This document shows positions 7,301-55,348 of a stretch of 64,000 bases of DNA, in pieces. The translations under genes were made by a program, and so were the position numbers. The notes under the pieces were generated by a model. It was given only the letters and a program-made list of their open reading frames with translations. It ran no database searches and was not told the origin of the DNA. Source of the stretch: Paraspadella gotoi (taxonomy: Eukaryota > Animalia > Chaetognatha). Each line of letters begins with the position of its first letter. The first letter of the stretch is position 1. The DNA is taken from NCBI GenBank assembly GCA_051294375.1, contig CM119265.1:15990896-16054895 (forward strand). Reading direction: 5' to 3'.

Positions 7301-7419
7301 CCGGAAGCAAAAAGCAAATCAAAGCGAAATCGATCTTCCCCGGAATTCACCGAGAAGGGAGGAATGAGAAAGGGAAAAGAAGAGGAGCTAAGAGAGAGAG
7401 AAACAAAAAGACTCGCTTG

Positions 7420-15311: not shown

Positions 15312-15386
<75 letters not shown>

Positions 15387-15982: not shown

Positions 15983-16030
<48 letters not shown>

Positions 16031-16391
16031 TATTTCTTTATTTCTTTATTTCTTTATTTCTTTATTTCTTTCTTTCTTTCTTCTTTTCTTTCTTTCCGTC
16101 TCAAACTTCCTATCTCCTTATCTCTTTCTCCCGTTTCATATTTCCTCAGTCCTAAAATGAGGAACGAAATAAAAAAAAACTTTTGGCACTCACCTCTCAC
16201 TCAACCCCCCCCCCCTCCGCGGGTCAGTTCGCCAGTCTTGGTCCCCTCGCCATCTGGAGGGTGAGTCCGCTGATGAAGGGACTCGGATACGCGATGGTCA
16301 TCTGTTCCGCGCTCATCAGCATTTATTACACCGTCATCATCGCTTATACCGTCTATTATCTCTTCGCTTCTATGCAGGTTGAGAATGGGAG

Positions 16392-16482
<91 letters not shown>

Positions 16483-17647
16483 GTCAACGAAAGATGTGGC
16501 TTCAACTGTTAGGTAATAGGCGAAAGTTGACGAGTTTTCGCCTCATTCTTCTCGTTATTTAGATGTTGTCGTCGTCGTTCTCGACTTAGTTGTCTTTGTC
16601 GTCGTCGTCCTGGTCGTCCTCATCGATGTCGCAACTGGATTCTTGTTGTCGAAATGACATCATCGAAGACCGAAAGAAAAAAAGAAAAGAATTTCGGTGA
16701 CAAAAAACGAGGATCGAGACGATGATTAACCACGCCCCTTTCTTCCCACAGTCGCCCGTCCCGTGGTCGATCTGCGGCGTCAACAACGAAACCGAGAGCG
16801 TCGCCGAGTGGTGGCTACGCGGAACTTGCGTCATACACAACCGCCTTTTGTTTGACTGATTTTTGTGTTTTGTTTTTTAAATTTATTTTGCTTTCCAGGT
16901 AAATATTTTGATATTGCTATAAATCTCTTTTTTTTTTTAGTTTGTTCTTAGTGCGTGGCCGAGAGTTTGTTAAGTTGGCGCCGTTTCGTCGTTTTGTTTG
17001 TTCGTTATTGAGTTTTATTGTTTTGCTTTATTTTCGTACGTGCGTTTTCTTCGTGACTTTTCACTTTTCCTCCTGTTGCTCAGTCACCTGGAAACAACAA
17101 GGACACAATTTCGTTTCGATGCTGCGAAGAAAAAAAAAATGGCGGTACGAGTGAAACGTTTCAGTTTTCGTTTTCGCATCAATGCTTCAATTGACAGCAC
17201 CGCGATCTTTTCATTTGCAGTGAAACGACAGACAACCGTAGTAGAAAGTTGAATATTCCAAATTCCGCAAGCATACATACAGAAACAGTTATAAACTTTA
17301 TTGAGAGACGCGAACCGAAAAATCCGGTGACCGCATCTCAAACACGGAAATGAAAACAAAGAAAACGAGCCGCTTTTATATTTTCTTTTGTTTCGTTAAA
17401 GCTTTACTCGCTATCTAGGTATTTTGCTTTCATTACCTTTCCCCGTTCCTTTCTTTGTTGTCTTCATTTCTTCCTTTAGTTTCGGTCGTTTTTCTTTGTT
17501 TTCTTTCGCTTTTTTCTCTGTCTCGTTAATTTCTCGTCCCGAGTGCGACGATTTGCTATCGAGTTTCCTCCGAATTCGCATTCAAACCGAGTCATCGCTC
17601 TGTCTCTGTCTTGTGAACTCTTGTCTTTGGCCCTCTCTCTCTCTTCT

Positions 17648-17718
<71 letters not shown>

Positions 17719-20700: not shown

Positions 20701-23700
20701 TGTGGCGTATCTGAAAATATAATACCACCATTAAAATTTCCTTTATTAAAGGAGGCCCAGACGCAAGAATTTCAGCTTTCTGCATTAAAAAATAAAAATT
20801 CGAAATTCATGGAAAAATGACTTCCAAAGTGAAAGTAAGAGAATGGAGGGTATCAGTATTTAGGGAGATCAATTAAAACATTTTCCAATAAATATCTCGT
20901 CCTTGTTCGAATTGCAACAAGAAGATGGGAATTTTTTCCTCCACTTTCCCGCGCGAAGAAAAATTAATGACTATCACCATTCGAATTCCTTTAATTGATA
21001 GACCCTTAAGCTTATGATATCATTTTTATCACTGGGTCCCCTTAAATGGAAAAAAACAAAAAAATATATTTCATTATTTGAACACCAATTACTCATGAGT
21101 GGATGGGGCAATTGACCTGAAATTTTGTATGTGGGTTAGGAAAGTGTGTCATTAAGCTGGAAATCAAGTTTTGATGGGAATCGTTTAAGTGGAAATGAGT
21201 TTAAATGGAAAAAAACAAAAAACCTGTTTCACTAATTGATTATGCTGTCTTTTTCATTTTTATATTAAATTATAAATGCAAGATGTATAAATTAATCTAA
21301 TAATTAATCAGTTAATTAATCAATTAGTCAATTAATTAATCAATTATTAATTAATCAGTCAATTAATCAATCAAAACAAACATTTCAGATCAAGTTAATT
21401 AATTAATGGACTAATTAATTAATTAATTATTAATTATTTAATTACGATAATGATCGTGGGCAGATCCGACATTGTTTGCTCAAACTTGTTCCTTTTTTGC
21501 CGGGAGGGATTAGACTCTATCTCAGCCTCATTCATACCCTGTGTCTCTTTACAATTTTACTTTCGCGGTCTCACGATTGATAAAACCAAAAGAGCGGGAT
21601 GAGTAAAGATTATTATAAATGAAAGGAGGAGATAAAAATTGAAAGGATAAAAAAAAAAGAAGAGACGAGCGCAGAAAAATAAAGAAGTGAGAATCGATGG
21701 GATGAAAATCCGAAAAAGAAAGTTTAAGAATCAAAAAAGGATGAAGATTAAAAGTTCAAACCCAGAGAGACATAAATAAAATTTTTGATTGAAAATATTT
21801 ATCATTGATCAAAACTTAAGTATTATTGGACAGTATTGAACACTAAGATTGACATGGTGAATTTCGGCATCCAGGACTGCTTAGCAACCGCGACTGAGAA
21901 GTAAAAGAAGATAAATCGTATCTACAGGGCGTGAGTGAGACGAGAAAGAGAAGCCAAGATGAAGAAGAATAAAGGGAGAGGTAAAACGAACGCGAAAAGT
22001 CGCGGTGGCGACTGGAGCGGGTAGGGAANNNNNNNNNNNNNNNNNNNNNNNNNGAATAAATTAATTGGGCGAGAATATAAATTTTATTTAGCCAAAAAAT
22101 TGGTAAATGAACCGGCCTGCATAAAACCTCCTCTTAATCAATAATAAAAACAGAAAATACTACCGTCATATACGCTAGAATGCCCGGCCATCTAATACTC
22201 GACACCACAAATAATTTCAATAGTGATAAAACCGATAGTATGAGAGTAGTTGAGATAAGAGACAAAGCCACTAAAAGACTGGAGACTGAAGCTCGACGAC
22301 CCCAATGCGAGCAAAAATAGAGACCAGCCTGAAACTGATCAGTGAAGTGTGAAGGTATGTTTCAAAGAAAAGACAACTTCATTAAGTATTCCGATCTTGG
22401 GAAGAAAAAAAAATACATATTGTTACTCCGCATTATCATCAAGTAAGGAGCTGACTATAATGAAAATGGTACAACCAATATTAAAAATTATCCATCTTAC
22501 TATTTACGTAATATCTCGTATACTATCATATATTACTGATCTTATTATATCTATATTTATACTATCTCGCTATTTTCCAGGACGCACACCTCAAAATCCG
22601 TCAGATGTCGTCTTCGTTTTCTCAAACGTCAACGGAAATTAAGACTTTGAAGCCGGCAAACGCTAAGGCGACGAATTCCTAGCGGCGAAAAACGAAAAGA
22701 AAAAAAAAAACAAAAAAAAAAAAAAAACAGTTGGAACGTAGATTTTTTTATTTTGTTGAGATGAAAAAGGAAAGGGAGGCAATTTCGACGACGACGACGA
22801 CGACGACGCGACGACGACGACTACAATGCAGACGTTGACTTTGCCTCAGTGAAACCAACTGAGATAAGGGACGCCGAAATTAGAAGAGAAAGAAAATCGT
22901 GCACTTGATTGGGTGTAGGATTGGTCGCGCCTCCACGAGTCGATGCGACGGAGGAAAACAGAAGAGAGATACGAGGAGAGGAGAGGAAGTGTTAGAGAAG
23001 AGACGGAGAAGAGAGAAGGGTCGGGAGGAGGTTTGAGAGGGAAGTGTTCGTTTATGCGAGATGAGAAGAAGAGAGAGAGAGAGAGGAGGAGGAGAGAGAG
23101 AGAGAGAGAGAGAGAGAAGAGAGAGAGAAGAAGAGAGGAGAGAGAGAGAGGAGAGAAAGAGGAAGATGAGAAGATGGATGTAGGAGATGACGTTTTCGAC
23201 TATAGGAGAGAGCCGAGAGAGATAGAGGAGGGAGAGAAAGAGAGAGGGAAGTAGACGGAGAGAAAAAAACAAAGCGGTTACCTGACGATCATACTTTCCC
23301 GTAATCATCTTTTTTACGCGTTCACATTGACAATCTCTCTAGAATCAGTTATATTGCGAATATACATAATCATGAGGCAGGCAACAGAAAACACTATATA
23401 GCTGAGACGTGCGAAGAAATTCGTCACACCGCCGCCCGCCGCCTCGCAGTCACCCGGGGCGACGGCAGCGGCCGGGTGGCCGGAGCGCGCCCAACGGAAG
23501 GCCGGCGCGAGGCCGTGCTAGGAAGCGCCACAGCCGAGACTCGAGGACTTCAAATGTGCGGCGAGGGGGGTGAGAGTCGAGAGTAGAGGGAGACGGGAGG
23601 TGGAGATGGGTGGAAGGGGGGGAAGACAGAGGCGAGCAGGATGGTGAGTGGGAGGAAAGAGAAAGCGTGGAATTTAGCGAGTACAAACTTTCGCCGTTGA

Positions 23701-26700
23701 GCACGATTCATAGGTAGAGAGTGAGAGGTGAATGGTTTTCGAGAACCTTCACGAACTTGTATATATTCAGATCTTTCCACACAGGTGTATAAAAGAACAG
23801 GGATTGGAATTATTACATAGAATAAATAGTGTCTCTCGTTCTATTCAACTATCCTCGCAATTCACGTATATACAAATCGCATATACGAATTTTTCAACAT
23901 GCAAGTCTATAAACCAGATGCACGACATAAGGCGATTTTTCTTTTCATTCGCTGCCGGTTCCGAAAGGTGCTTCTATTTTATAGGTGGGTAACAGTAATA
24001 GTAAATAATTCTTATTTTATTTAGCGGTGGAGGTCTCTCAAACTCGCTTAAATTGCAGAGCCGGGAACATCTAATAACGTCTCTATTTTTCTCTTCATGC
24101 ACGTTCTCAGGCTGATTTTGCCGCGCAAGTCTCTCGGCTGCTTTCAGGTCTGTGCCTCCGAACCAGACGTGTAGGCGTCGGATTGTTTTGCGCGGCAACT
24201 GGTTCCCCCTCCACAGAATTTCGGTCTAGTCCTTTTGCCCGCAAAGGGCGAAATGGACTATTTAGATGGACTAAAACTAAGTGCTGTTTATATGATTCTC
24301 GGAGACTAAATAAATTAGATGTCTCTCGGGTAAAATAAGATAATTAATATAACCGCAATAAAGCCACCATGCGGGCTGTATTTTTTCTGCAGGCCAGCTA
24401 TACGGTATCAATAGGTGAGAGAAGGGCAGGTTAGGTAAAGTGGGCGCTTTATCAGGTTGTGTAAATAGTTCGTGAATGAAGAATCCAATCTAGGCCTAAC
24501 TTAACAGTCAAGGTTCAACTGTAGTTGATTTTAGTATTGTATGCCGCTAACTGGAAAGAGTGATTATGTGATTCTTGAAATAAAACCATGGTGAATGTCT
24601 TAGAATTATCTGTAGTATAGTACAGTTTTAAATATATTTAAGGAATAGCTGAAAATGGCGACCACTGCAATGGAGCAAATTTACTTGAAAAAATGGATGG
24701 TACCCTATAAGGAAAATATGCGTGGAATTGTGACAGTGAACAATATCCAATGAAAAATTAATTAATAGTTGCTTGATTCTTTTATTTGGTGATTCCATAA
24801 TTGTATACTATTTATTGCTAAAGATTCTGCAACTTACGAAAGTTCACCTTGTTGATATAAAGAGTGGCCAGTTAATCAAGTTTCACGCAAAAAAATTCAT
24901 AAAAAATATTCAATATGGAATTTGTGGAAAAATATTATATATTGTATAGGTAACTTCGTAGTTCGACTAGTGCACCGTCTATTTATTTCTCATTTTTTCG
25001 ATGATTTATGCTAGTGCCTTATAATTTTACCCATGTTTATTTTGACAATACCTAATTTTGTTTTTGTCTCTGGACTCCAAACTTGTGGGTGTAAGAGAAG
25101 ATCTAAGTAAATTCCTCTATCATTTATCTCGAGAGAGCTGAATTACGCTACGTATGGTCAACGATTATACGCGGTATTACATAAACCGAATAGCTCTGAG
25201 TTTAAAATGGGCTTTAGAGTACTGAATGTGCTATTGATCAACTTTCAAGAAAATTTTGTGAGAATGAAGGGAAAAAAATCATGAAGGAGAGAATTACAAA
25301 TTGAAGTTGTCAAACACAGAATTTTTATTAAGAGGAAAATAAATGAGTATTAAGGAACATCAGATTCTGGAATAATTAATTATTAATAGGGGTAATCTAT
25401 TATTTACTTCTCTCTGCTCTATTCTCGTGCTACTCGGTTCTCTTCTTTCTCTCTCTCTCCTCTCTTTTCATCTCGTCTCTCGTCTAACGTCTGAGCAAAA
25501 GAAAAAAAGAAAAAAAAAAGAGAGAGAGAGAGTCAGGGTTGTGGAGAAGGGGGGGGAACAGAAGGTGGAGGAGGAGGAGGATAGAGGAAAACTATCATTC
25601 AAGTTTTTATGTTTTTGTCGCCGCGAGAGAAAAACAAAAGGACAGGAGAGGAGAGAAAAAAAAACGTGCGACGCTGAAAAAAAAAACTTTAATAAAAAGA
25701 AGAAAAGTGGGTTTAATCATTTTAATTCCCACGTTGCGGGAATTTTTTTTTTTTTTTTTTAAATAAATACATTCCCTTTTTTTTCCCTCCGCGTTTCTCA
25801 ATGAATAATGTTATTTTGTTTAGGCGTGAAAGAGAATTCCGCGTAAACACTTTATTCATGAGGAACCGCGCGGTTCCAAGGGGAACGGAGCAGACCTGCC
25901 GCTTTTGTTCTTCGGAGAAGAGATCCCGTCCCGCGAACTACAGCCCCAGCCCAATCTTTTCATCTCCAGCGTTTCAACTCTTAGCGACAGCGTCATAGCG
26001 ATGATCTCGTCTTATCCAATCCAACCACAATGTCTTTTTTTTTTTAACAATCATTCCCTCTTCCTTCAGCATCTTTCCAACATTGTTAAAACGTTCGGGG
26101 TTAAAACAACTTCATCTTTTCATAACATCGAAATTTATCTTTATTTTCGCTCCTTTTTTTTTCACCAGATATCAAAATCCAGGGGTTGACGCTCCGCCGT
26201 CTCGAGATGCAACTTTTATTCCTCCCATTCATTTTGGTTTTGTCTCCTTCCTTCTCTCCATCCCATCCGTATCTCCCGCAGTCGGTCTTTCCCTTTCACC
26301 TCGTCGCATCCTCGCGGCGACTCTCGCTAAATATCGCTTTCAATTTCTCTCCTCCCGGCGAGTTTCTCCTTTATTCAACCAACTTATACATACGTTTTAT
26401 TACTTTATATAACAACCGTCAACCGTCGAACCATATATCTCATTCTTTCCCCCCCCTCCGCCTGAAGCCATCGACGCCGCCGACATCGGCGCCCCGCAGT
26501 GGCACCTCTCCCTCTGCCTCCTTCTCTCTTGGATCCTCGTCGCGTTGGCGCTCATCAAAGGCGTCGAGACTTTGGGTGAGTCGAGGGTGGAAACGTTTGG
26601 CGAGAGGATGGAGAAAAAGTCGGCTCCTTTTTTTATTTATTTTTGTAATTCTTTTTAGTAAGGTAATTTCACTTCTATTTTAAAAACCCCTTTCGCTCCA

Positions 26701-27020
26701 TCCCCTCTCTTCCTCTTCCTTCCCCACTTCCTTCCTCTCTTTTTTTTTCGTTCCTTCCTTCTTTCCTTTCCTCTTTCTTTACTTCTTTCTTCTTTTCTAC
26801 CTTTTGTTGGTGCTCGCTTTAAACCCTTCCTCTCTTCTTCGCCCGAGGCTATCCGCAACCCTTTTTACGAAATCTCACCACTGCCATATTTCTCCTTTCC
26901 TCGCGATAAATAAAAACAAAAGAAAAAAAAGTAACAAAACGAAGACGCATAAAAATAGAAAACATTCGAAATGAAACAAAAAACAAAACATCCGTCACGT
27001 GTACTGCGTAATTTCTCTCT

Positions 27021-27097
<77 letters not shown>

Positions 27098-30000
27098 CTC
27101 TCTCTCTCATAAACAGCAAAAAAAAAGCAATATTTTTACAAAGCCTAAACAGGAAATTCTAAAGCGGCCATATTCTTAATCGTTATCGCAATTGGCAAAG
27201 AATTCTCGGGAGAAAAAAAAGAGCGGAGAGATAAAATCGTTATCGTTTCCTCACCTCCCCCTCCCCACCCCCATTCTATCCCTCGCTCAAAAAAGGTAAG
27301 GTCTCCTACTTGACGGCCATCTTCCCTTACATCCTCCTTACCGTCTTGATCATCAACGGAGCGTTGCTGGAGGGAATCGTCGAGGGGAGTCTCTACTACA
27401 TCGAGCCCGACTTCACTCGACTCTCCGACATCAACGTTTGGTGAGCAGATTGTTTGGCAATTATATTTCGGGACCAATGTATTCGTCATTCAGGAAAGAC
27501 GCGGCCGTTCAAATCTTTTACTCGCTCGGGGTGTGCACGGGCGGTTTGATCACGATGTCGTCCTTCAACGACTTTCGCAACAATTGCCTCAAGGACGCCA
27601 TCTTGGTGGCTGTCATCAACTGCGCCACTTCCGTCTACGCCGGTTTCGCCATCTTCAGCATCATCGGTGAGCTAATATGCTGACACGACATACTGAGACA
27701 AATAGCCCGGTTTACCCGTTGCTACTAATAACGTTTTTTATCAAAAATAAAAGGATAGAATTACGCGGCGTGAATTTTGACGCGTGTTGACATCGGACTA
27801 GAATTTGATCGCTTCTATTTTTTTTGAAACGTCAAAAAAGAATAGAAAAAAAAATATCGAAGACTTAGAGAAGGAAGCGAAATCTTTTTCGCCGCCTACA
27901 CAATTTTGCCTTTTTCTTTCTTATCCTTTTTTTTTTCACAAGATATATCCTTTATCCCCTTTCATTTCGTATCTTCAATGCGATTTTTTTTTCTCTTATC
28001 GTCTTTCCCTCTTTGCTCTATCTCTCTCTCTATCTGCTCCAAAAAAAGTATAGACTGTAGTATATATTTTAAAAAAGATTAATCGACCTGGATGTCTGGA
28101 AAAAGAATCTACTTGAGAGAGCTTGCATTTCAATTTTATTTCCCCATTTTTTTTCTCTTTTCTTCATAACTTTCGTTTTTATCCAATTTCCTTTTTACTT
28201 TTAATTTTGTTCTCGTCTTTGAAAACGCTCCATTAATTCACATAAGTCCCTTCCACTTTTGAATATTGTTTTCACTTTCACTTTTCTCAACCACCGTATA
28301 ATCTCCACTTTTCTCCGAATCCACAAGCCACTCTCAGTTCCCTCACTATCCACCTATATTCCTCCCCAGGGGATGAAATCTTTTGCCGAGAAAAATTTCG
28401 CGAGTATAAATTCCCAAACGCCGTTAAATGTTTACCGTTGCCAGGCATCCGTAGCGACCATTCTTCCTGCTTCCTTATTTTTTCTCAACCCAGAAGATTC
28501 TTTTGCATTTTAGCTTCTCAAAAATGTGTTTCGTTTTTTTTTTCTTCTATTAGCACTTATTAACAACGAATCCCAAACTCGTATCACGCTACCGAGTATT
28601 TATTTTTCTGGAAGCAATTTCCTTACCCAAACAGAGATCGCATGGGTACCAACCCGCCCCCAATTTTCCTTCAAATCGCTCACAACTCAACCCACCCCCT
28701 TCCCATCGCAACATTCTTTTCCCGTTTCGAAAAAAACTATTTTGTCCCCGAACGATCGTAAATCTTTCTCCTTCACTCTCTACCCCGCTTCTTTTTCTAG
28801 AGGTACGACTCTCTCTCTCTCTCTCTCTCTCTCATCTCTTCTCTCTCATCTCTTCTCTCCTCTCTTCATCTCACACCGAACTCTCTGTCTATTCTCAATT
28901 CATATAAACAGGATACATGGCGCACAAGGCTAACATCAAGGTAGAGGATGTGGCCACCAAAGGTCCTGGCTTAGCCTTCGTCGTTTACCCCGAAGGACTG
29001 TCCCTTCTGCCCGGCGCGCCCTTCTGGGGGGTTCTCTTTTTCTTCATGATGTTTACGTTGGGCATGGGGTCTACTCTCTCCATGATGGAAAACGTTCTCA
29101 GGTGATCGAAACCTTTATAATTCTATTTGTAGTATGTCGCGGCTTGTCGTACGTGCGCTTGTGCCGTTTTCGTCCGGCCGAAGGGACGTAATGCATAGAC
29201 GAAAGGATGATTTATAGAGTCGCCCTTCATGAGTCTAAAAGCCTAGTTTAACGCGATCTGACCAGAAAAAAAAGAAGAAAAAACGAAAGAGTTACGAGTT
29301 ATTGTTTTGGCCGTTATTCGCCGCTTTAGAGGTATTTAAGAAACATAAAACAAGGAAGAGTGAGACGGATCGGCCTATTCGAAAATAAGGAGGTGGCGAG
29401 AGAAGATAGAAGAACGGTTGCTTCGGTTCCATTCCGGGATACGACTCATTAAGAAAGACAAAAAAAAACACACATTATAGATTGCGTCAAGATCAGCACC
29501 GGGCAAGAAAAAATAATATTAATAAAAAACAAAAACAAATTAGAATATATTTTTATTTTGTAAATTTTTTTTTCTCGAAATGTATAGTTTTTTTCTACGT
29601 TCGTGGTATATACTTTTCTTGTTAGGTTACTCTTTACGTTTTCACTTCCCGGTAATAATGTCAGTATTATGGCAACAGCCGGGTTGCCTGCGATGCCCAT
29701 TGGGATGGGGCATCTCACTGTTGGCTTTGGGGGCTTCCGACCCTCAGTGACGCCTCCAGTCACTGGCGCGGTTACCCTAGGACGGTCTCGCTTTGCCAAC
29801 ACAGAGGGAAGTCGTTAGGACTGTGGATGGAACACTACGCCTGGGATGGTGTGTTCCCCCTCTGAGCCATTGGATTTGGCTAACGGATGGTGGACGTGAG
29901 GCGGTGTGAATATACCGCCACAGTATATCAATTTTAATCTTTATTTCCTTTCTTATGATCCTCCACCCGCTCATAACATTCGAACCATCTTCTCCCATCT

Positions 30001-35804: not shown

Positions 35805-37644
35805 ATGTCCACCTCCTCGTCGGCGGCCTCCGCCGGGGTCGAGGTCACCGTCACGGAATCCCGTCTTCCTAAGACCCCCCTCGCCCTAGTGGTTTTCTTG
35901 GTGTATTTTCCACTTGGATGCTGCCTAGCTCTCGTCAGGTTGGTCGCTCAGCTTGCGATAGTCGAGTGAATTTCTTTTTTTTTTTTCCTATTTTCCTTTT
36001 AATTCTGGACAGGTTCCTCCTTTCATTTCAAATATTTATTTTCACCACAATCTGGCCTATTTGCCGCTTTCGGAATTACATGCTTCGCACAATGTGTTCT
36101 TACCTTTTGGGAATATGGGTAAAAGAAGAAAATAATTCTTCGTTTCCGACGCCTCCGTCGCCTCGAGTCGGGAGTATTCGGCCACGACATCATCTCAATC
36201 GATCTCCGTCCGACGACATGTCGGACGGAGCACAGGTCGGGGTCGATGCTGCCACTTCCGCAGCCGTCCCAGATACCCCAGCAGAAGCTGGAGGTAATTC
36301 CACACCGATCGACGAATCCTCGCCCAAACTCTTCGTCGCCAACAGTGTGTCTGTCATCGACGGCGCCGTCGTTGCGCTTCTGTTCCCGAGAACGCGCGTT
36401 ATAAACACGATCAAACTGCCTCGGCCTTTGTCATGGCTTTTGGGCTATGAAAGGCTTTCTGGACGCGGAACTAACGGAACAATCTCCGCCCTGGAACAAT
36501 TGTTGTCTTCAAGGGGCGATAACGTTCTGGTTTTTCCCGAGAGATGTTTGACGAATGGAAAGGCAGTTTTGAAGTTGGACGAGAAACTAGTTTGGTGCGA
36601 AACTAAGAAGAGAGAAGATGCCGGCGACGGTTAGTTTTTTTAGAGTTTGATTCATGGGTTCTCGTGTACGTCTTTTAAATTTTATTATTCAGACGGCAAA
36701 TACGACCCCCGTTCACTGATAGCGCGTATTCATCCTCTAGTCATTAGATTCAGACGGTTTCCAGTTGATTTTCCCGCCACAGTTTTAGGGAGCACCGAAC
36801 TGGCTGATCTCTTTTGGATGCTATGGTGAGTAACTCAATCTTAGGAGCAATTATTTTCAGACTTCATGGTTTATGCTCCTCAGGGCCCCAGTCAACCTAA
36901 TCACCGTCCAAACTCTCTGCCCGACCGCGCCTCGCGTCGGCGAAACGCCGGCTTCCCTGGCTGCGCGTGTTCAAAGCCTCATCGCCGACGCCCTTGGAGT
37001 TCCCGCTCTTGCGCACAATGACATCGAGCTCCGCGAATATGCTAAGCGCCGCCTCAGGGACGTCCAGTACGAGGACGTGGTCGCTATGGTTCCCGGAATG
37101 GCCGGCCATCGTCGCGAACGACGCCAGGATCGCGCGTCGCGCGAGTTAGTTATCGATACAATGGTAGCGCAGATCAAGACGGTTCTTCCGCAGGTTAGGC
37201 GCAGCGTATTTTCAATTTACCTGCAGTCTTGTAGGAGTTGGGGAATTTTTCAAATATTTTTTTTAATCCAAGGTCCCCGTCGCCTTGATACGTCGTGACG
37301 TTAAACAAACACGAGACGTAGATGTGACGATAACTCGATTCTTGGAAGGCACCATTCCTTACGAGCCAGAGGATACGACTTCTCCCTCGCGCGACGACGA
37401 GCACAAAACAAACGACACCGACGCTGCCTCTTCCCTTTCCGAACTGATTGAGGCTCGTCCAGGAACGTCGGACAAGCTCGCCCCCGACGGCGCCGTTGCC
37501 AAGCCTCGGCCTTCGGAGTTGGCGGCTACAGAGTTTGCGTCAACTTCACGTAATCGTCAGTTATCCTTCGCAGATCGTAAGAAGTTCATGATCGAGCAAA
37601 GCCGAGAGAGATACTTAAAAAGGATGAAATTGAAAACCGCCTGA
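35805..37644 (+). CDS. AUP1: Ancient ubiquitous protein 1 (lipid-droplet/ERAD factor). Exons 35805-35938, 36013-36629, 36693-36825, 36884-37193, 37273-37644
   Basis: N-terminal hydrophobic hairpin (LVYFPLGCCLALVR), acyltransferase-like FPERCLTNGKAVLK, CUE domain (MVAQIKTVLPQVP...DVKQTRDVDVTITRFLEG) and C-terminal G2BR (RQLSFADRKKFMIEQSRERYLK). Confidence 0.9.
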
Positions 37645-37907
37645 ACAATTTAGGCGAAATTGCCTATCGCTATCTAGCCGGATGTCTTTTCCCCCCATTA
37701 ATTACTAGTTGAAGTTTTAAACTTAATAATTGTTGCTAAGTTCGATCTTCTTTCTATATGAACGTTTGATCTTTAGTTGGAGCTTACAGGGTACCCATCA
37801 TGAACTAAACTTAGCCGATCAGCCCTATAGTTCGGCTTGACGATGATCGCCATGTAGAAAAAATGCTCTAATTGAAACTCTTTATAGCGTCGAACCACGA
37901 CGACGCG

Positions 37908-40900
37908 ATGTATATAGTTTGGTTCCAAGCGCTCGTCTTGGCGTCGCTGTTGAGGGCTGGTTCCCTATTGGTGTCGCCAAACATCCAATGGACGCCGTGC
38001 GTTCGAGGATGTCGTTGCCAAACCGAGCGACTCTCGGAGAAAAGGTTCTTAAAGCGATTTCAATAGATTTAAACAATTAATTCCAATTATCGAGAATTCT
38101 TTAATTATAAAGCGTCGCCACTTTGGGCGAGAACGCCACGACATCTAAAGATCATCTCTATGTCGTCTGCACCCGAGGCCACAATATCAGTTTGCCCCAA
38201 TTTCTCGAAAAACTGTTCCGATTGAATTTTGAGTTCCACCGCTTTCGTGAGGTTCGAAAAAGTTGAAATATCAATTCGTAGTTATCTTACCTTCGATTTC
38301 CAGTCAAAATTTTTTTCCCCGCTCTTCTTTCCTAGGTTTCCGTGGAGGGACTGCTCATTCCTACGTTTTCGCCCTCTTCCTTCCTCGTTTTTTCTCGATT
38401 GGAGATACTAAACCTTCGTAACAATCGAATCTCACGAATAGCCTCGTTGGCCTCCGACGCTCTGGCCACTACCGACGTCTCGATAGACGCCGCCACTTCA
38501 GTACCGGGGGCAGAAGCCATGGCCTCGACCGATAAGGGCGCCGAAATAGAGGCCCGCCTCGTATCACTCGATTTGCGGTCCAACAATATCAGGGAGGTCG
38601 GGGAAGAGACCTTCAAGAAGATGAAACGTCTCCGTGTATTAAACCTTGGCTCAAACAACCTACATTCCCTTTCCGTCGATGCATTTATAGAGAACCGCAA
38701 TCTCCGGGAGCTCCACTTGCAGGCAGGATGTTATTAATGCGAGGAATAATGAAAAAGCGTATAACTTTATTATTCTTTATTGATTAAGGTTCACGATTTT
38801 TTTTTTTCGCGCAGGACAACTTCATTATGACATTGCCGCAAAATATCTTCGATTCATTGACTCATCTCAAGAGTTTGGATCTAAGCCGCAATCAAGTTTT
38901 CTACCTCCGTAAGACGTTTTTCCAAATATTTCCCCCACCCATACCCATACCTATACATTACCCATACCATAGTTAATATTAGTAATTCTCTTTTTTAAAT
39001 TCAACCCAGATGACGGAGCGTTCTCCTCGCTTCGGGAGCTGCGATACCTCAAATTAAGTTCCAATTTTTTGACCTTAATTCCGCGCCAATGCTTTAGTTC
39101 TCTGCCCCACTCGGCCAGTATCAGCATTCAAAACAACCCCTTTCAGTGCGCCTGCGGGATCGAGTGGTTGTTGAGCGAGTTTCTTGCCAACAGGTCGGCA
39201 GTTGTTTGTACCCATTTGTTACTTGTATTGGTGAATGACGATCAACGCTGAAAATTTGGTTCCATTTGGTTCCATTCACTCGCAGATACACATTCGACGA
39301 ACCCTACTCTATCCGTTGTGCCTCGCCCTCGAATTTGGCGGACCAACCTTTGATCTCCCTATTCCCGGATCCCGCCGTCCCGTTGCCGTGCGATCCGCCG
39401 TCCGTCTCCATTTCCGGTTCGGGCCTTGACACCGGCTCAATTCCAGGTTCCATTTACGAGTCCATGTTCGGAGCCGATCCCGAAACCGTCGATAAGGCCG
39501 TCGTTTTAGTTCGCGGAAACGCCGAACTCAGCTGCAACGTCAAAGCGGGGATGCCCCGTCCCTCTCTTTTGTGGGAGCTGCCTTCTGGTACAATTTTCTG
39601 CCTTTGTACTCCGGTTTTATTTCAAAATAATTATATCATATTTATTAATTTTTTGTAGGGAAAAAGATGGCTGTCCCACATGCGCATCACATATCGCAGC
39701 AACTTATTAACCATGCAAATATTACGGATTTTAGATCGTTTCAAATGAAGCCGCTCGATTCAGAGCACACAATTTCGGTACTTACGGACTGAGTCGACTG
39801 ACATTAATAATTTATACTATAGTATGTAATTCATACTTCATAAATTTTAAGTTATAGGTGATTTTTTATATTTGAATAAAATTGAAGCAACCAATATAAA
39901 AATTTTCATTCATTCAATAAATTTTATTCTTTCAACAAGGTTGAAAACGATAAACAATAAAAGGCTCAGATGCTAAGTCTATAACAATGGTATTTACAAG
40001 GTCAAAGTTTGATCATAAAGAGAAAGAGGGTAAACGAACGAGGGTGAGGTCATTTCAGTCACTAATATCAAGGTTGCGTGTTGTCGTTGTCCACACTATC
40101 ATGCTTCTGACTTTGGACAGACTCTCATAAGATAATAACATATCATCAAGACTCTCTCACAGTCTAGTTAACTCCCGAGTACCTAGTTTCCCTATTAATT
40201 AAGTAGATTAATGTTTCTATAAGTATTTAATCGGGGAATATTATGTAGTACTCCGCACTAGAATCAAAATAGAACATTGGTTCAACCAAATATTCAAAAA
40301 ATAAGCTATATTAGGCTATATTAGTGGCTATTAATATTATAGACTTAATACAACAATTTCATTTCAATAGGAGTTTTGTAGACAAAAATTAAAATTTAAT
40401 TTAGGTAATGAAAACAATTTTAGCATATAACTTTGAGCATTGAGCAATGGCTTTTTTTCTTAGGTTGCACCACCGGGCATTTTGCATTTAACCGATTTCC
40501 GGTTTCCCTTCGCCGGAAACTACACTTGCCACGCCCTCTCTCCCGCCGGGAACTCCTCTGCTTCGATCACGGTGGAAATTCAAAGTGCCGTTTGGAAAGT
40601 CTACATCTCATCGCTATTCATCTGTTTTGGAACAGTCGCTGTTTCCATCATTTTAGCGGCGTCCATAGGTCAGCACTCGGTTGAAAATATACTACGTACT
40701 GTATTTGTTTTTAAAATTATATTTATGGTCTTGAAGTTAAAGATAGTCTGTATTTAAGAGACAACGATTAATTTTAACGAAGGATAATTTTAATTTTTCT
40801 CCGGTGAGTCGTAAAATATAAAAAGTAAAGTTATTTAATCCTTGGAGGAGTACATTTGTTGTTGTCACATCTGTAAAAAAGCGTACTTCATTTTAGTATC

Positions 40901-43634
40901 TTCACGTAACTCGTACTAAGAGTAAAAGTAAAGTAAAAGTAAACGAAATGACCTTGTAATCCGACAGTTCATTTTCTGTGGATCTGAGCAAAAGGTCGCT
41001 TGCGTCGCGAATGTCGTGTAGGCGCACGAGCGCCGATGAAGGATTTTTCCGTCTCTTAAATCCACATACCTTATCGTCATCGTTTTTTGTTTTGTGTATT
41101 TTTTTTGTAAATTTTCCTAATTAAATGACATTTTAAATATTTTATACTTGAATTCGACGCATCCTCCGCATTCGAAGTTCATCGGCTGTTTGGCGCATTC
41201 CACGTTTCCGCACTTGATTGGTTTGTTTTTAGGATCACCGCATCGTTCTTTCTTTGGGCTTTTTCAAAAACATTTTCATGATTACAACCAAGACCAAGTC
41301 AAAGATTTTGATGATTCATTTTGTCACCTGTCTTTGTAACGGTAGTCTTTCTCGTATAAACAGACGGTACAAAAAGCAGGAGTAACCTCTGTAAAAATCT
41401 GCTTGATCAGAAGACAAAACAAGAAAAATATTTGATTCCTCATTATTTACATACGATAGTAATGTATCCGGCTTAAAATGTGTACTGCTAAAAGTTTTCG
41501 TCCTCATTTAACGTTTTCTCAGGATTGATCGTTCTATTGGTAACCCACTACGAGAACAAACGCCTTCAGTTGACGGGACTGGATGGAACGCCTCCCATAT
41601 ACCCGACCCCAGAAGAATCCCCGCAACTAACTCATCGCCTTCTCACCATTCCCGTTAACGCAGGTAAGTTTATATCACTTTAAGTCAGAAACACTTAGTC
41701 TATCGGCGTATCACTAAATTCTCGGAATTGCCGATACAGCGATGTTCGAAAACATCCGTGACGGTTACGACAGTCTGCGAAGCAAAATCAAAACCGGGTT
41801 GGACAAGCGAATGGAGAAAGGAAGATTACTGGTGGAGTTGGCTTGGGTTTCCGGAGAGACGGCCATCACTGGGCTTAGAGAAGGAACTTCCAGCGGAATT
41901 TTAAAGGTGAGTGACAGGAGGCAGTCGTCAACATTCTAAGAAATAAGCATTTTTCATTGATCTTTCCATCTAGGATAACAGATACATAAAAAGAAAGGTT
42001 TGTCTGACAAGGTGCTAAATATGTAAAATAGGATAAGCGGGTTCTTGTTAGTGATGCACTCGCCTTTTATATGATCTCACACTGTTGTCCAAAAATTTTA
42101 TTAACTATTCTTTGTCTAACAATCAATCTCGCTAATTCTAAAACATAAACATATGGCCCAACCAGCTTTGCTAATTTTCGAATGCTCTGTGGTTCAAAGC
42201 CGAGATAAGGCTTTGTGAGGATTTGTAAGACGTGTGAGGATTTAAGCATCCTATCGCAGTGCCGTTTGGGAAGTGATTTTTATATGCGGAACTCGGTAAT
42301 CTATTTGCTAACAATGAATAGGGTGCGTAATGTTTTTGAAAAAAACTTTAGTATAATATACGTAATCCTAGAATAATACGTGCGGTCTCCAAATTTTTAA
42401 TTTAGTGGGATTATTACGCTCCCATTGTTTTGATGTTCATTTTCGCCACTTCAACGTATTTACTCTCAGATCGATCATGTCGTGCGCGAAAGCGGCGTGG
42501 CGTTCACTCGAGGAATTCGTGAGGGCGGCGCCGCCGTCAACCGCACCATCCGTGAGAGCAGCGCCGTCGTTTCTCAAGCCGTTTACGATTCCGTCTCTGC
42601 CGTCAAGGTTAGTAATGAAAATATTAAAGGCTAAAGTTTTCAAATAATATTTTAATTTTAGGTGTAAAAAAAAATAAATTGCAAAATTACTACTTTTAAT
42701 TACTATGTTTAAATTGTAAACATAAATTGATTTATTACTTCTATATAGGTTAGTTGTGATGAGTATAAATAGTACCTTCTGATAGAGATATATAATTATA
42801 TATGTACTTGCGGAATTAAATTTTAATTTTAAAGGGGACAACACTATAAACTAAAATGTAATTCTATTGTTTTTACCTCATCCATTTTAAAATTAAGTGG
42901 AGTTTTGAGATAATCACTGATTAGTTAGCTGGGAATCTATATTATATTAATAATTGTAAAACTGCAGTGGATCACATATTGAGGAATATTCATAAAACGT
43001 TTGTCTTAACCCCCCCCAACAGGACAATGTAAAGACGTTAAAGGATTTGTGCGGTGGCGTCCCAACCACGGCGTCGATCTGTGGCGACACCCCCGCTATT
43101 GAGAACGGCGAACTGGACGATCGTTGTTTCGATGAGGCTTTCATTGCTGGAAGGCGAAGCCTCGCCAACGGCGTCGTCATCGGCGCCGTCGTCGTTAACG
43201 CCGACGAGTTTCTTCAGGAGTCGGCGACCGACAATATCGGGATCGAAGCGCAGGTCCACCGACATCGGGAAGACGATTTCCGCGACTTCGCTCGAGTCAG
43301 CAAAGTCAACGAGAACAAGAGATCGAAACTGAAAAACGATTCCAGCAAAAACCATCGAACGTCGCCTCTGACGTTGACGCTCAACTCCATCGCCGAGGAT
43401 GAAAGCGAAGGCGGCGGAGGCGGCGTCGCCAACTGCGCGGAAAGCGAAGAGAGCCCAGTCGTGAAGAACGATGTCGACGTCAGCGGAGGAGAGATCGATA
43501 TTATCCTCTCGAAAAGTCTGGGAGATGAATGCGGCGTCGAAGAGGTCGATTTCGGCGACGTTACGAACTCTCACAGTGACGATACTGCGAATGGAAGCGA
43601 TGGAGCTTCGTCCCAACACGTGCCTACTGCCTAG
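37908..43634 (+). CDS. Type I membrane LRR + Ig protein (LIG family, IGLR-2/ISLR-like architecture). Exons 37908-38044, 38113-38251, 38336-38722, 38815-38908, 39010-39193, 39286-39587, 39659-39777, 40464-40668, 41523-41663, 41740-41906, 42470-42607, 43023-43634
   Basis: Signal peptide, LRRNT (PCVRGCRC), LxxLxLxxN repeats, LRRCT (NNPFQCACGIEWL...CASP), Ig (LSCNVKAGMPRPSLLW...GNYTCHA), TM segment, long cytoplasmic tail. Confidence 0.88.
40831..41443 (-). CDS. Secreted three-finger/Ly6-uPAR-like Cys-rich protein, 127 aa, nested antisense. Exons 41443-41328, 41258-41148, 41069-40953, 40870-40831
   Basis: Three GT-AG phase-2 introns give one open frame: MRNQIFFLFCLLIKQIFTEVTPAFCTVC...RCGDP...KCGNVEC...CGGCVEFK...RRSC...FC...NCRITRCDNNKCTPPRIK*. 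Confidence 0.8.
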
Positions 43635-44166
43635 ACTTATAAAACCGTAGTCCTTAACCTAATATTCTTATACTTATACTTATTTATCAATCAATGGGAT
43701 TCCGGGCAAAACCTATTCGGGTTTCATTCCGGGAAATTCGAACCCGTGGCGCGAGATCATAAAATACATTACTCTGTTTTATATTATCATTATTACTTTT
43801 AACACCACATCTAGCAGATTAAATTTACACACTGGTCCACCAACTTTTAGGGAATCATTTGTGAGTGATACTCGGAAAATTCGCGTTTTGGTTATAATTA
43901 AAAATAAAAATAAATTTAACAATTACTAAATATTTATTAAAATGTATTATTAAAATCAGTTTGCATACAACAAAGTGGAATTAGATAGCTAAATTCATGT
44001 TTAAGACAAACCCATAACTATAACAATCAAGGTGCTGACAATGATTATGTATGATCGCAGTATGAAAATATTTTCTATAAAACATTTCATTAGGACGTAT
44101 ATTAGTCCTAATATTAATTTTTTATCGCTTAATGTAAGCCAATTAAAACTAAATTATAAAAAGTAA

Positions 44167-47100
44167 TCATTGGTTTATTTCCCATCCTTTAGAAGCGCAC
44201 CATTCATACGCATTTATAAAGATCTTCATCCACGGAGATTCCATCTTGTCGTCGACCTTTCTGTCAATCCAGGGCCACTGCCTCCAAAGGGTACAGCGCT
44301 CCGGATGAGGCATGAGGGCCAAGTGGCGCCCGTTAGGTGAGACGACTCCAGTGATTCCACGTGGTGATCCGTTGGGATTGTGCGGGTACGCCTCAGTTCC
44401 CACGCTGTCTCCAGGGGCCACGAATTGGAGACAGGCAAGCGAGTTAGATTGAAGTTTGTCCAAAAAAGACTCAGGATCTGAAGGGTTATGGTTGCTTCAC
44501 AGGTCACAAAACGAATGTCCAAGTTTAACAGGGCAGTAATTTGAATTTCAGAGCTAACCGTTTTGAACGACTTGAAGGCGACCCTCCCCGTGGGCAACCC
44601 AAACGCCGAGGCGCCAGTTGTCCATTCCCTTCAACAATATCGAAGGCGATGGGTTGATTTGGACGCAGGAAAACCGTGATTCGAATCGACCGCTGGTGTA
44701 AGAAAGGCTCTAGATTAACGCTTAAGTGAAAAAAAAAATTTATTGCACTTTTTTGTTTACCTGTGGTTGTGAGTATACCGTAGAGGTTTCGATGCTTCCA
44801 TATCGAGTCGGGGCGGTGAATTTTCTTTATCGAATTCGTCGTCTTCCAAATCTCCTATCCATCCCAACAGCGCCATCAGCTGACATCCATTGCAAACTCC
44901 CAGTGAAAAGGTTTCCGGTCTGAAGAAAAGACGACAGAATTGGTTGACATTCATGACCGGTTCTTTTTATTTGTACTCACCTGCTGTAAAAACTTTCAAA
45001 TTGTATCCTGGCTATCGGATTCGCCAAAATCGTGGCGGCCCAGCCCTTTGCTGACCCAAAAACGTCCCCGTAGCTGAATCCGCCTACAAAGGCGAGCCCG
45101 ATGAAGTCCTGCAGCGAGACGCGTCCAGAAACGATGTCGGTCATTGTCACGTCGTAAACAGCAAATCCCACTGTTTTAAAGGCGGCCGCCATCTCTCTAT
45201 CTCCGTTACTCCCTTCTTCTCTAACAATAGCGACATTGAAAGTATTGTCGGTGACTGTAGAAAGCTCGGAAGGCATTCTCCATTCTTCGTCCCATCTGTA
45301 TCGGATGGCGGGGAGATCGGCATCGAACATGGCGGCTTCTTGGTCAATGCATGTTGGATTGGCCTGAAGGCGGTCGAGTGTCAATGATGTTGTTTCCCAC
45401 GTGCGTCTTAAAGATGACAAAGAGTGGCTCAACACGCGCACTCCGTTTAATGACACAGACACCATAGCCTCCTTAATAGGATCTGTGACCGTCCCGATGA
45501 GTTTCGCTGAAATACTTGCTTCTTCAAACTTTCTGACGACGGCTTCCATTTTATCAGATTCAACTTCTAAAATGAGACCAGGCTCTTCCGAAAATATTTC
45601 TTTCCAGTCATTCTCGCTGGATTCAAGGTTGATGTCGAGAGAAATCGAATGAGCAGCAAATGCCATTTCGAGGATGGTGACGATTATTCCTCCGTCACTT
45701 ATGTCGTGCCCTGCTAAAATGTCTTCGTTTTCAATGAGATCCTGCAGGAAAAAAAAATGTAGCTGATGGAATCGAAAGCACGTTTATCGTTTTCTTCAAA
45801 GTTGTAATTCACCTGCATAATTTCAAAAGTTCTTTTTAAGGATTCCGAGTCATCCAGGTCAGGACAATCATTTCCCAATTGTTTGTAGCATTGAGCTAAT
45901 GCGGTTCCTCCAAGTCGTCGCTTGCCTACAAAATAATTAGTTTATACATACATAATTTTGAATTTCCATTATTAAAAATATTAATTATCACCATTTCCCA
46001 GATCAATGTGAAGGACTTGTGTTTTTCCTATTTTTCCTTTAAATTCTGGCGTCAGTTTTTTCGTGACGTCTGGCACTGTTGTATATGCACTGATTACGAG
46101 AGCACCAGGCGCCTTCACTGTCTTTTCCCTTACTCTTGCCGCCATACTCAATGAATCTTTACCCCCATCAATTGCAATTCCAATGTTGTTCATTATTTGA
46201 CACATCGCTTCACAGGCACGAACTAATTTAACTCCTTCGCCCTCCAATTTTGCCGGCCACATCCAGTTAGCGCTACATTTGATGTCTCTTAAGGACGTCA
46301 CTCGGACCATGGACATTGAAAGAACTGCTTCCGTAACAGCTAATCGTGCTCCCGCGGCAGGATTGATTAAAGTCTTTATGGGTTGCTCGCCAATCGTCGT
46401 AGCCGCACCGCAGAGGTCAAAGTGTGAGAGGCAGACAAGAGCAAAGTCGGACAGTGGAGTATGATGGGGACCGACGCATTGTTGCTGAGCCACCAATCCA
46501 GTGACTGAACGATCTACTTTATTTGTAAGAAATCTTTTGGAACCCACAGTTGGCAGTTTCAAGACTCGATCTAAAGCGTCTTCAATTCTCAAATCCTGCT
46601 GAAAATCAAGAGGTAAGAGTTCTTCTCTCAAGCTCGAAAGGTCGAATTGCTTGGGAGGCATGTCGCCGAGAATTTCACCTAAGCTCAAGTTTACAGGATC
46701 TCCTCTATCATGCGATGGGTCACTGCTCTGCCTCCGTTTCGTCGGGGGTGAATTAGTCAATGAGTAAACTTGTTCGTCTTCATCAAAATCTTTCAAAACG
46801 ATTTGTCCATCTCCTGTCACCTTGCCTACTACGTCGACTGCGCATTTCTCCCTTTTTGCCATTTGCTGAAGGAAATCGACATCAATTGGGTCAACAAGAG
46901 CGGCGTTGCTTTCTTGATATTCTGCCCCCCAGATCTCTTGTACCGAGATCGAATTGTCTCCGGTAGAGAATTTGGAAGCATAAACTATGCCTCCACCATT
47001 CTCCCCTTCAACGATCTCTTTTAAAACATTACCGTTTCCCCCCGCTCCTTGATCGTGAATAGATTTTAATGGGTTTTTTATTTGGTCAGTTTGAGCGTAG

Positions 47101-48856
47101 GCTCGTTCCGCACAAGATCTTATGATGCGGTTCATCTTTTGTTCCATTTCGGGATCCCCTCGTTGGACAGCTCCGAAATCAAGGTCGGTGGAATTATCTC
47201 CTTGTATTGTTATTGAAGATGCGGCACCGCCACCCATTCCGATTCTGTATACTGGTCCCCCGACCTTCACAATGCTGTCTCCGGGTTTAGGTGGATCCTT
47301 TTTTGTATTATCCCTTAAAATAGTTCCAATACCTCCTGAAAACATTATCGGTTTTATCCATTCCCGACGGTTAGAAACTTCACTGCTGGTCTGGTGTTCT
47401 TGAAATTTGATCATTTGCCCGAATGATCTGGAAAAACCTAATATTAAAGGCTCTCCAAATTTATTTCCATAATCAGAAGCTCCATTGGAAGCCTGAATAA
47501 TAATTTCTAACGGAGAAGAAAAGTTACAAGGGTATTCTGTTTTATCTTCCCATGGCAGATCAAAACCTAGAATGTGAAGATTACCAAAAGCATAGCCAGC
47601 GGTACCTGCAATTGGTAAGCCTCCTTTTCCAACTGCCTGAACATCTCTCAGACGCCCACCAGTTCCAGTTGCTGCCCCAGGAAAAGGAGCAACCCCAGTT
47701 GGAAAATTGTGTGTTTCTGCAGTAAATACAACATCCGTTTTAACCGGTCTTGATCGCTCTAATTCATATGCACTAGAAGAAAAAGATTTTGGTCCTAGAG
47801 CCTTAACGTCAAATCCGTTGATTGCCGAAGAATTATCAGAAAACGCGATTACGTTATTCTCGTTGGAAAATTGTTTTGTCGATGCAACAAGTTTAAAAAG
47901 GTTGGTCGGTAAAGGTTTCCCATCTATATTAAGATTACCTTTAAAAAACCAATGGCGAGAATGTTCGCTGTTTGATTGTGCAAGATCGAAACATTCGACA
48001 TTGGTGGGATCACGTTTTAGCTTGTCCCGAAACAGAGTCAGGTAGAAATCAAGGTCCCATTTATCCCATGCCAGACCGAGATTATTGTTTGCTTCTTCAA
48101 GGGCTTTGCGGCCAAGATCTAAAACAGGAATTGAATACCAGGGTTCTCTTTGCAACCCAGGTATGGAAAACGTTTCCAAAGGCTTGTCATTGATCGTTTC
48201 TGTCATTCGGTCATAAAGAATTTCGTTTATTTTGGCTATATTCTTTGGTGAAAAAACTTTGCTGGAATTTTGCGTATCGGTTGAATACGTAAATTTGTAT
48301 CTTATAGCTCGTTCCAATCGTTTAACTTTGTGAATTCCAATTGCATGACAAATGCTAACAGCGTTTGTAGAAAAAGGAGTAGAAAACGACAACCTTGGAC
48401 CAACTTCAATAACGACGGTTTCGTCGTTCTGAGAAAAAGGAATTTTACTTAATCTGCTTCTTAAACCCAGATGCGTTTTTCTTGATTTGAGACAATCGGG
48501 CTCTAATATCAGCCACGATAACTTATCAATAACATCGTTAAAATAGAGCTCAATGTCTTCCGGATCGTCAAATGCTTTTTCATCGAGTTCAACATAATAG
48601 CAAAACTCGGTCTTCAAAGTTAAGCTAAAACTTTCGTTATTTATTCTGACAGGAGAGATGGTGGTTTTGTCTATTTCGCCTTCTCCATCATAGCCAAGCA
48701 GTTGAAAAACCTAATTAAAATGTGAGCGCTGAATAGTCTTTAGAATTTGACATTTTATTCATTAGTAATTCATACCTGTTGCAATAGTTGAGTTTCTTTG
48801 GAAATGGCCAGTCCTGGAGTTACGTAGAGAGGAAGCAAAGGAATTTTTGTTTCCAT
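44167..48856 (-). CDS. PFAS: Phosphoribosylformylglycinamidine synthase. Exons 48856-48776, 48710-45992, 45925-45813, 45741-44981, 44919-44761, 44692-44559, 44477-44167
   Basis: EVGPRLSFSTP, QSNSEHSRHWFF, AETHNFPTGVAPFPGAATGTGG, SIHDQGAGG, DGGKDSLSM, GGFSYGDV, GVCNGCQLM, WVAHGEG, YPHNPNGS, MPHPER. Confidence 0.98.
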
Positions 48857-53231: not shown

Positions 53232-55348
53232 ATGGAGCTACAAATTGGTGTTTTGCTCATTTTGATGGCTTTTTCTGGTAAGTGTTGCCGTTGGTTAAAC
53301 GAAAGATCGTACACATTTTAATTTCAATTCGTTAAATTTTCAGAAACTTATTTAACATTTTTAACAAATATTCGGGTGAAAATATTCCGTTATTTTGGCT
53401 TTTTATCAATTCTGACTTATATGATAACAGCGGGGAAGCCAACGACGAAGAGAGAAACCGAGCAACGTTTGGCGCAACGTTTAAAAAACGTTTTTGATAT
53501 TCGTGCAATTTACAAAGGTAGTGAGCATGGTAATTTTATTCTTAAAGACGTTTCTGGTATGTTTAATAATTAATTCAACCAATCAGGGACTGTAAGAGGA
53601 ATTACGGGCCCATCGACTGGCCCCCTGGCCGGCCTCCCCCCGCTCTCCATGTTTTTAGTTTTCGATTACCGACTTTCTGCCTTGAACTTTTACTGTTTTA
53701 CTGAAACTTTTTTTTAAATCACAATTATTCTGCCTCTCTTGTCTGAGCGAGGGGTCTAAATTTGTTAAACTTTCTGACTAGATGAGATACGGTTATATAA
53801 TATATATAAATATATCACAATCATTTTGCCTCCTCTTTTTTTCTTCTTTTCTTTCTTTCTTTTTTTCTCTCTTCTGAGGGGCGAGGGTGTCCCCCCTCTC
53901 GTCGCCCCTGCGACCAATATCAAATTATCCATTTATTTATTAAATAAGCGGTAAAATTTTACATTCACTGTTTAAGATCTTCCGGTCTTTTTTTTTCTTT
54001 TTATGACCACAAACGTGAAAATAATTTCTTCCACGAAAAAATGAGTTATTAAATCTTTTAATATTAAATTGTTTTTCGGATATTACCCCAACCACCCTTA
54101 ACCCGAACTACCCCTTACAACATCTACCCCTAACCCTAATATCCCCAAACCTTAACTACCCATAACCACCCCTAACCCTAACCAGTAACCACCCCTAATA
54201 CTAAACACTCCAAACATCGGGGTTTGATAAATAAATAAATAAAGTAAATTTTTACGGGTAAAATTTAACTTTCGTCGACCGGGATTTTGGCGTCTTTTGA
54301 ACAACTATTTAAAAATATTTATTTTTGTAAACAATTTTTAAAATATTATTAACCTAACTCTAAACCTTTTTAACCCAAGCCACCTTTGAGTTTATCCCTA
54401 AACCCCCTTAACCCCAGTTGGCGAAAGTAAAATTATGCCAAAAATGGTAAGTTCGAATAAAAAATAACCGATTGTCAGCCTATGGTGGTTTAAGTCCTCC
54501 TTCACTCTGTACCAGATAATGTAAAATACTCTCTCACAATCTCGTTCAATCACTTCCTCAGTACCTGGCTTCCCTATCAATTGAAGTGGTATGATATTTC
54601 AAAGAATGAATTGATGCATTTGTCACTTTTATGTGGTTGCCCTCTAGGACCTCCAAAACGTTCGCAGGGCGCGTCTCAGGTCGCCAAAGTAATGATAGAT
54701 GACAGTGGCAATCGCAGCGATACAAACAATAGGAATCCCGTAAAAGGGCTGGAAAACAATCTGGAAGTTAAAAAACAAATCGTGGAGAAACTCCCGGTCG
54801 TTGGAAAAGATAACCTCACCGATTTGGTAGATGCCGAAAACAGTAATGGGGACAAAGACGGAGAGAGAATAGGCGAGGGCGAGGTTCAAGTTCTCGTCAA
54901 TCTGTCCGGAGACGTCATTGAAGCAACTTGTCTCGACGGTGACGGTTGCAACCAAATCAAAGCCAACGCGCAAAGCCTTTACGATTTAGTGAGTTGTCAC
55001 TTGCTTCCGCACTTTAAATTTTTTTTTTCTGGGAATTTGTTCTATACAATAGCTTAGATAATCCCCCCCACAAAAAAAAAAACAAACAAAAGACTTTAGA
55101 ACTAAATATCGGAGTGAGACTAACACCTTCACGTCCATAATACAATTCGTCTTTTTGATGTATTATTTAATTTTTTATCTCAGGTTTGTCATCACAAATC
55201 GAACATTCTTCAAGGATGGAAGAATCAAGGCTGGTCTTTGTGTGAAAAGAACTCCCCACCCAGTTCGACAAAAGAGGCGTGCGAGTTGTATCCAATGAGT
55301 TATTATTGTTGCAAATCTTGCAAACGAATTTTGGCCGGCTTACGTTAG
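53232..55348 (+). CDS. Secreted precursor (212 aa) with C-terminal 8-Cys PLAC-like module. Exons 53232-53277, 53431-53517, 54648-54988, 55184-55348
   Basis: Signal peptide MELQIGVLLILMAFSAG, KR sites, then CLDGDGC...C...C...C...YYCCKSC; GT-AG introns in phase. Confidence 0.78.
53584..53910. mobile_element. hAT-like MITE with 8-bp target-site duplication
   Basis: Ends CAGGG...CCCTG flanked by caaccaat (53576-53583) and cgaccaat (53911-53918). Confidence 0.6.
54085..54205. repeat. Degenerate CCCTAA-like tract
   Basis: ccctaaccctaa and variants; more at ~54350-54415. Confidence 0.6.

Follow-up and report, generated by a model that had tools for sequence, protein, structure and literature searches.

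An antisense gene nested in an intron of a chaetognath LRR-Ig gene encodes a probable three-finger protein

Can one short intron of a receptor-like gene house a second, complete gene for a secreted protein, and what might such a protein do? The question is raised by a 64,000-nt stretch of the Paraspadella gotoi genome (Chaetognatha; GCA_051294375.1, contig CM119265.1; hereafter, the window), in which a leucine-rich repeat–immunoglobulin (LRR-Ig) gene carries an 854-nt intron. An initial annotation, made from the letters alone, proposed that this intron is largely filled by a minus-strand gene of four exons encoding a three-finger-like protein. We find that the nested gene is real, expressed, and spliced independently. 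Judged from its sequence, the product probably has a three-finger fold and is likely a divergent soluble variant that we do not file as a family member.

The RNA evidence consists of contigs from one run (X1) of one study; runs X2 and X3 contain other organisms and contributed nothing. Although X1 is labelled "RNA?" and its RNA status is a guess, it behaves as spliced RNA, since host GT-AG introns are likewise spliced out in it. A single 672-nt contig spans 40650–41550 with zero letter differences from the window and omits three stretches, each bounded by CT..AC on the plus strand; the strand of the nested transcript was assigned from these splice dinucleotides. The omitted stretches coincide with the three phase-2 GT-AG introns that the initial annotation had drawn (Table 1), and X1 depth bins across them fit zero intronic cover, with the qualification that contigs lose rare forms. 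Joining the four exons yields 127 codons and a stop (minus strand, 40831–41443); the ATG has a stop in the same frame 6 nt upstream. A different intron-2 acceptor at 41054, giving a 122-aa product, was rejected, as the RNA fits 41069. Within exon 1, an acceptor-like site (41382–41397, minus strand) is 88% alike to the exon-4 acceptor; none of the RNA joints in the contigs uses it.

As first described, the gene is absent from the list of open reading frames (ORFs), which contains no minus-strand ORF of at least 80 aa in the region. Among 300 dinucleotide shuffles of the 854-nt intron, a spliced GT-AG ORF of at least 110 aa arose in 22, and none of the 300 gave such an ORF with more than seven Cys.

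The boundaries of the host intron were also set by RNA. Loose contig ends at 40669 and 41521 agree with the host splice 40668/41523, and the intron therefore measures 854 nt, of which the nested gene occupies 72%. The nested coding region lies entirely within the intron on the opposite strand, while its untranslated regions (UTRs) may extend over host exons. The nested ATG lies just 79 nt from the host acceptor. Because contig cover spans this whole gap, the start site is probably within the next host exon or past it. The contig overlaps the host exons on either side by 19 and 28 nt, which is a hint at most, given a bridging threshold of 31. Nested antisense genes as such are already known: in Drosophila, nested genes make up approximately 10% of all genes; in humans, two-thirds of nested genes are on the strand opposite their host, and most have a function unrelated to that of the host (PMC4394429). 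The arrangement here most likely reflects genome packing and lacks a functional link with the host receptor.

Translation of the exons bore out the protein outlined at the start. It contains 13 Cys, one in a signal-like stretch at the N-terminus and 12 thereafter, spaced 2,16,9,4,8,2,18,11,7,4,4 and followed by Thr and five further residues. The cysteine-rich part opens with C1-x-x-C2 (C25 and C28) and ends C-x4-C-x4-C-T. All 12 Cys fall within 97 residues, in keeping with the rule that Ly6/uPAR (LU) domains hold ten or more Cys in 60–110 residues (PMC4492491). The predicted signal peptide has a hydrophobic core of 9 residues (positions 5–13; hydropathy peak 3.4). The product is basic, with 19 Lys/Arg versus 12 Asp/Glu (junction residues excluded) and an isoelectric point of ~8.8, and it has no N-x-S/T site. 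Its stop codon comes six residues past C121, leaving no C-terminal signal for a glycosylphosphatidylinositol (GPI) anchor; both the basic character and the missing anchor had been anticipated. Strand propensity is found on both sides of the finger-2 turn, and the introns fall at residues 39, 76, and 115.

For comparison with the family, we used 47 insect Ly6 domains from the available part of the PMC4476152 supplement, with features counted by eye. The nested protein has the CxxC start of all 47 domains, the Arg two residues before C6 found in 44, and the 11-residue C6–C7 gap found in 34; it thus displays the Quiver/Crooked-type combination of that Arg with a C6–C7 gap of 11–14 residues. The RSCAY motif at C6 occurs in 6 of the 47, and its pairing with CGDP at C3, as in the nested protein, occurs in two (Crooked). 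DGKI sits at the equivalent place in the 18-residue finger 2 of one Twit orthologue. If two of the middle cysteines are treated as an additional pair, the spacing becomes 2,16,9,16,18,11,7,4,4, and 10 of 15 family features are present (six of nine spacings, four of six motifs). Full shuffles scored at least as high in 4 of 5000 cases, and cysteine-fixed shuffles reached four of six motif features in 411 of 200,000; as the 15 features were picked after the protein had been seen, these numbers flatter the match and are not clean probabilities.

That choice of features is one of several points that weigh against a Ly6/Quiver-like assignment. The final Cys-Asn, present in 47/47 insect domains, is Cys-Thr at C121, with no other letter for the Thr in the RNA contig. 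This Asn is termed invariable in LU domains (PMC6600238) and is one of three selection rules in PMC4492491, of which the nested protein follows two. Three gaps fall outside the insect ranges: C2–C3 is 16 versus 7–11, C7–C8 is 7 versus 9–15, and C8–C9 is 4 versus 1–2. The Lys/Thr two residues after C5 is also absent. The spacing is compatible with disulfides 1-5, 2-3, 4-6, 7-8, and 9-10, with the reservation that four assignments of 10 of the 12 cysteines tie. Four exons and phase-2 introns set the gene apart from the three exons and phase-1 introns, one at the tip of loop 2, of a typical LU gene, a layout described as typical rather than invariant (PMC6600238). The predicted signal peptide is modest, and no evidence names a target or tissue.

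The homology searches point in the same direction. Their queries were single exons, or exons 1–3 read through with 49 intron-derived residues and without exon 4, so that the spliced 127-aa product itself stood outside all of them. With such queries, Pfam, the PDB, and protein databases returned no relative: Pfam gave no three-finger hit (QVR included) above the cut-off, PDB sequences and two word-index searches gave nothing, exons 1–3 matched none of 1.84 billion representatives at E up to 0.001, exon 3 had no homologue among longer proteins, and 0 of 123 pattern matches in metagenome contigs were confirmed. Pox_vIL-18BP in Pfam (E 0.011–0.089, below the cut-off) and IL-18BP in the PDB (E 1.6) were set aside as coincidental hits on a short cysteine motif. 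A single-sequence model of the read-through was uninformative (predicted local distance difference test score 35), and a fold search with it found no match. The proposed three-finger kinship is supported by motifs and spacing and is unconfirmed by a hidden Markov model (HMM) hit or a modeled fold, and the final Asn is missing. Because the databases contain no close relative of the animal, every negative homology search is weakened.

The PFAS gene elsewhere in the window (45981–48710, minus strand) is mostly one 909-codon open stretch, in a genome with many short introns. Its product shares 50–58% identity with proteins of annelids, arthropods, molluscs, and vertebrates, at about 54% whatever the phylum, and in a quick-method tree of 46 rows (the window protein plus 45 of 120 hits) it forms a very long, unplaced branch.

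By eye, the closest known proteins belong to the insect Ly6 cluster III/V subfamily, especially Drosophila Crooked (CG17218), CG14401, and Twit. Common to this group and the nested protein are the CxxC start, CGDP at C3, an 18-residue finger 2 with Gly at its tip, RSCAY at C6, the 11-residue C6–C7 gap, and a final C-x4-C; Crooked also has the same 16-residue C4–C5 gap. The nested protein differs in having 12 rather than 10 Cys, a longer finger 1, a shorter finger 3, C8-x4-C9, Thr where the final Asn is expected, and no GPI tail. The initial annotation regarded six disulfides as a variant form. The 12 mature Cys hold, but the number is not new, given that Drosophila Coiled is a single domain with 12 invariant cysteines (PMC3058042). 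The extra cysteines of Coiled come after C6, whereas those of the nested protein come before C5, and Coiled has the final Asn and a predicted GPI anchor, which the nested protein lacks. SLURP-1/2 and PATE resemble it in having a single domain and a stop shortly after the last cysteine, have a signal peptide such as is predicted for it, and differ in their 10 Cys, final Asn, and three-exon gene; no sequence similarity to these vertebrate proteins was detected. Quiver/Sleepless is likewise one small domain of the fold proposed here, but Sleepless is GPI-anchored and N-glycosylated.

The explanation we favor, with somewhat less than even confidence, is that the nested antisense gene encodes a secreted, divergent Ly6/Quiver-like protein that would tune one of the animal's own surface receptors or channels from the extracellular side. 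The signal peptide would be cleaved and the product secreted. Ten cysteines would form the Ly6 core, and the other two may add a bridge within the segment that links fingers 1 and 2. By analogy with loop 2 of Quiver/Sleepless, which in Sleepless is needed for binding to Shaker and the nicotinic acetylcholine receptor (PMC4735452), the basic finger-2 hairpin could bind a membrane receptor or channel. The protein would diffuse freely, as SLURP proteins do (PMC6502960).

Other explanations accept the protein and assign it a different role or fold. Within the same fold, a structural or assembly role is possible but unlikely, in which the product would be secreted to assist epithelial junctions, cuticle, or matrix, comparable to Crooked, Coiled, Boudin, and Retroactive. 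The best motif matches by eye are to Crooked, a septate-junction protein (PMC6600238), and Retroactive acts in cuticle organisation, to go by the title of a reference; against this, all 45 Drosophila LU genes in PMC6600238 carry a predicted GPI anchor, and the nested protein is anchorless. It is also doubtful that the product is a lineage-specific cysteine-rich secreted protein that folds differently, for instance an antimicrobial, protease inhibitor, or pheromone. The absent Asn, the three of nine spacings out of range, the atypical intron phase, the lack of an HMM hit, and the cationic character would all suit that view, but the family motifs stand at equivalent cysteines and in the right order, an arrangement that few shuffles equalled in score.

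The initial annotation's candidate toxin found no support. A soluble, basic, disulfide-rich protein would fit a secreted toxin or defence protein against prey or predators; loss of the GPI anchor has been proposed as a step toward three-finger toxins (PMC6502960), and a defence role has been hypothesised for secreted invertebrate three-finger proteins (PMC13719153). However, the 64-kb window holds no paralogue, tandem or otherwise, the exon and read-through queries matched no toxin family, and there is no venom context or sign of the animal being venomous, its lineage being unplaced in the PFAS tree; we consider this role quite improbable. Still more remote is an effect in cis, in which the antisense transcript would interfere with host transcription or splicing at the intron that splits the transmembrane helix. 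The contig does run through the host intron end to end and into both flanking exons, and inverse regulation has been proposed for opposite-strand nested pairs (PMC4394429), yet those overlaps are below the 31-letter bridging limit and could come from host pre-mRNA, the intact 12-cysteine ORF suggests that the gene works through its protein, and both transcripts are present in one run. A joint reading combines several steps: a new soluble invertebrate three-finger subclass from a poorly sampled animal lineage, Asn-less and with an extra finger 1–2 disulfide, acting as a diffusible ion-channel ligand or weapon, its anchor lost independently of the like loss behind vertebrate SLURPs and snake toxins and its promoter in a host coding exon. 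We regard that combination as improbable.

Table 1. Features of the host and nested genes (positions in the window)
Feature	Position	Strand	Basis
Host gene, 12 exons; 874-aa signal-LRR-LRRCT-Ig-transmembrane-cytoplasmic protein	37908..43634	+	RNA joints, exon translation, Pfam
Host intron, 854 nt, GT-AG, phase 1, interrupts transmembrane helix	40669..41522	+	RNA joints
Transcribed 5' flank, 79 nt to host acceptor	41444..41522	-	contig cover
Nested exon 1 (coding): ATG, signal-like stretch, CxxC, first half of finger 1	41328..41443	-	RNA contig
Signal-peptide-like stretch, residues 1-23	41375..41443	-	hydropathy; predicted, cleavage site uncertain
12-cysteine three-finger-like domain, residues 25-121	40852..41371	-	cysteine pattern; putative fold
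Nested intron 1, 69 nt, GT-AG, phase 2	41259..41327	-	RNA contig skip
Nested exon 2: five Cys, CGDP motif, second CxxC	41148..41258	-	RNA contig
Nested intron 2, 78 nt, GT-AG, phase 2	41070..41147	-	RNA contig skip, cut +4
Nested exon 3: predicted finger-2 hairpin, DGKI, RSCAY, C7 and C8	40953..41069	-	RNA contig, motif comparison
Nested intron 3, 82 nt, GT-AG, phase 2	40871..40952	-	RNA contig skip
Nested exon 4 (coding): C-x4-C-Thr, six-residue tail, stop	40831..40870	-	RNA contig
Transcribed 3' flank, ATTAAA at 40794	40669..40830	-	contig cover

The host gene shows further features of its own. Pfam detected LRR_8 in its product, together with weak LRRCT and Ig matches. Host intron 3 (38723–38814, plus strand) has a GC-AG donor, on which an RNA joint and the open frame agree. 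Read-through of the host donor at 40669–40757 (plus strand) would add ~29 residues to half a transmembrane helix, with a second hydrophobic run and a stop, and would yield a receptor without its cytoplasmic part; the RNA contigs do not distinguish this form from the antisense 3' flank. In host intron 7, 39888–40122 matches many other RNA contigs at 88–99%; the matches have loose ends and suggest a dispersed repeat that is transcribed. Nearby, 40148–40217 is 72% alike to 54525–54600. An Rfam scan of 37400–44000, this repeat included, gave zero matches.

The LRR-Ig gene begins 263 nt downstream of another gene, presumably AUP1-like, whose product gave weak CUE and Cue1_U7BR hits. One RNA contig joins the 3' end of that gene unbroken to the LRR-Ig gene (37500–38040, plus strand), and an acceptor-like TTTATAG lies immediately 5' of the LRR-Ig ATG. 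The continuous contig could reflect overlapping UTRs, read-through, or an operon with trans-splicing. Farther away, exons of a sodium:neurotransmitter symporter (SNF) gene lie among long AG microsatellites (15313–27683, plus strand), and a GC-rich block (~7200–11400; 43–57%) has frames resembling, by eye, a decayed retroelement, with 0 of 4 tested ORFs matching Pfam at E up to 0.01.

Twelve-cysteine Ly6 proteins and secreted Ly6 proteins are each already known. Three-finger genes, secreted forms included, occur in all 387 invertebrate genomes surveyed in PMC13719153, and in one starfish, 2 of 48 are likely secreted (PMC11595613); a check of the starfish supplement for five short motifs found none. 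In the part of the literature covered, we found neither an Asn-less soluble 12-cysteine form nor a nested invertebrate Ly6 gene described.

Together, these results establish a gene that escapes both ORF scans and protein databases. If the fold holds, Ly6 genes can lose the "invariant" final Asn by which they have been collected, and soluble invertebrate three-finger proteins may be undercounted. The nested protein would also offer an unanchored natural scaffold with which to study the role of such proteins outside the vertebrates.

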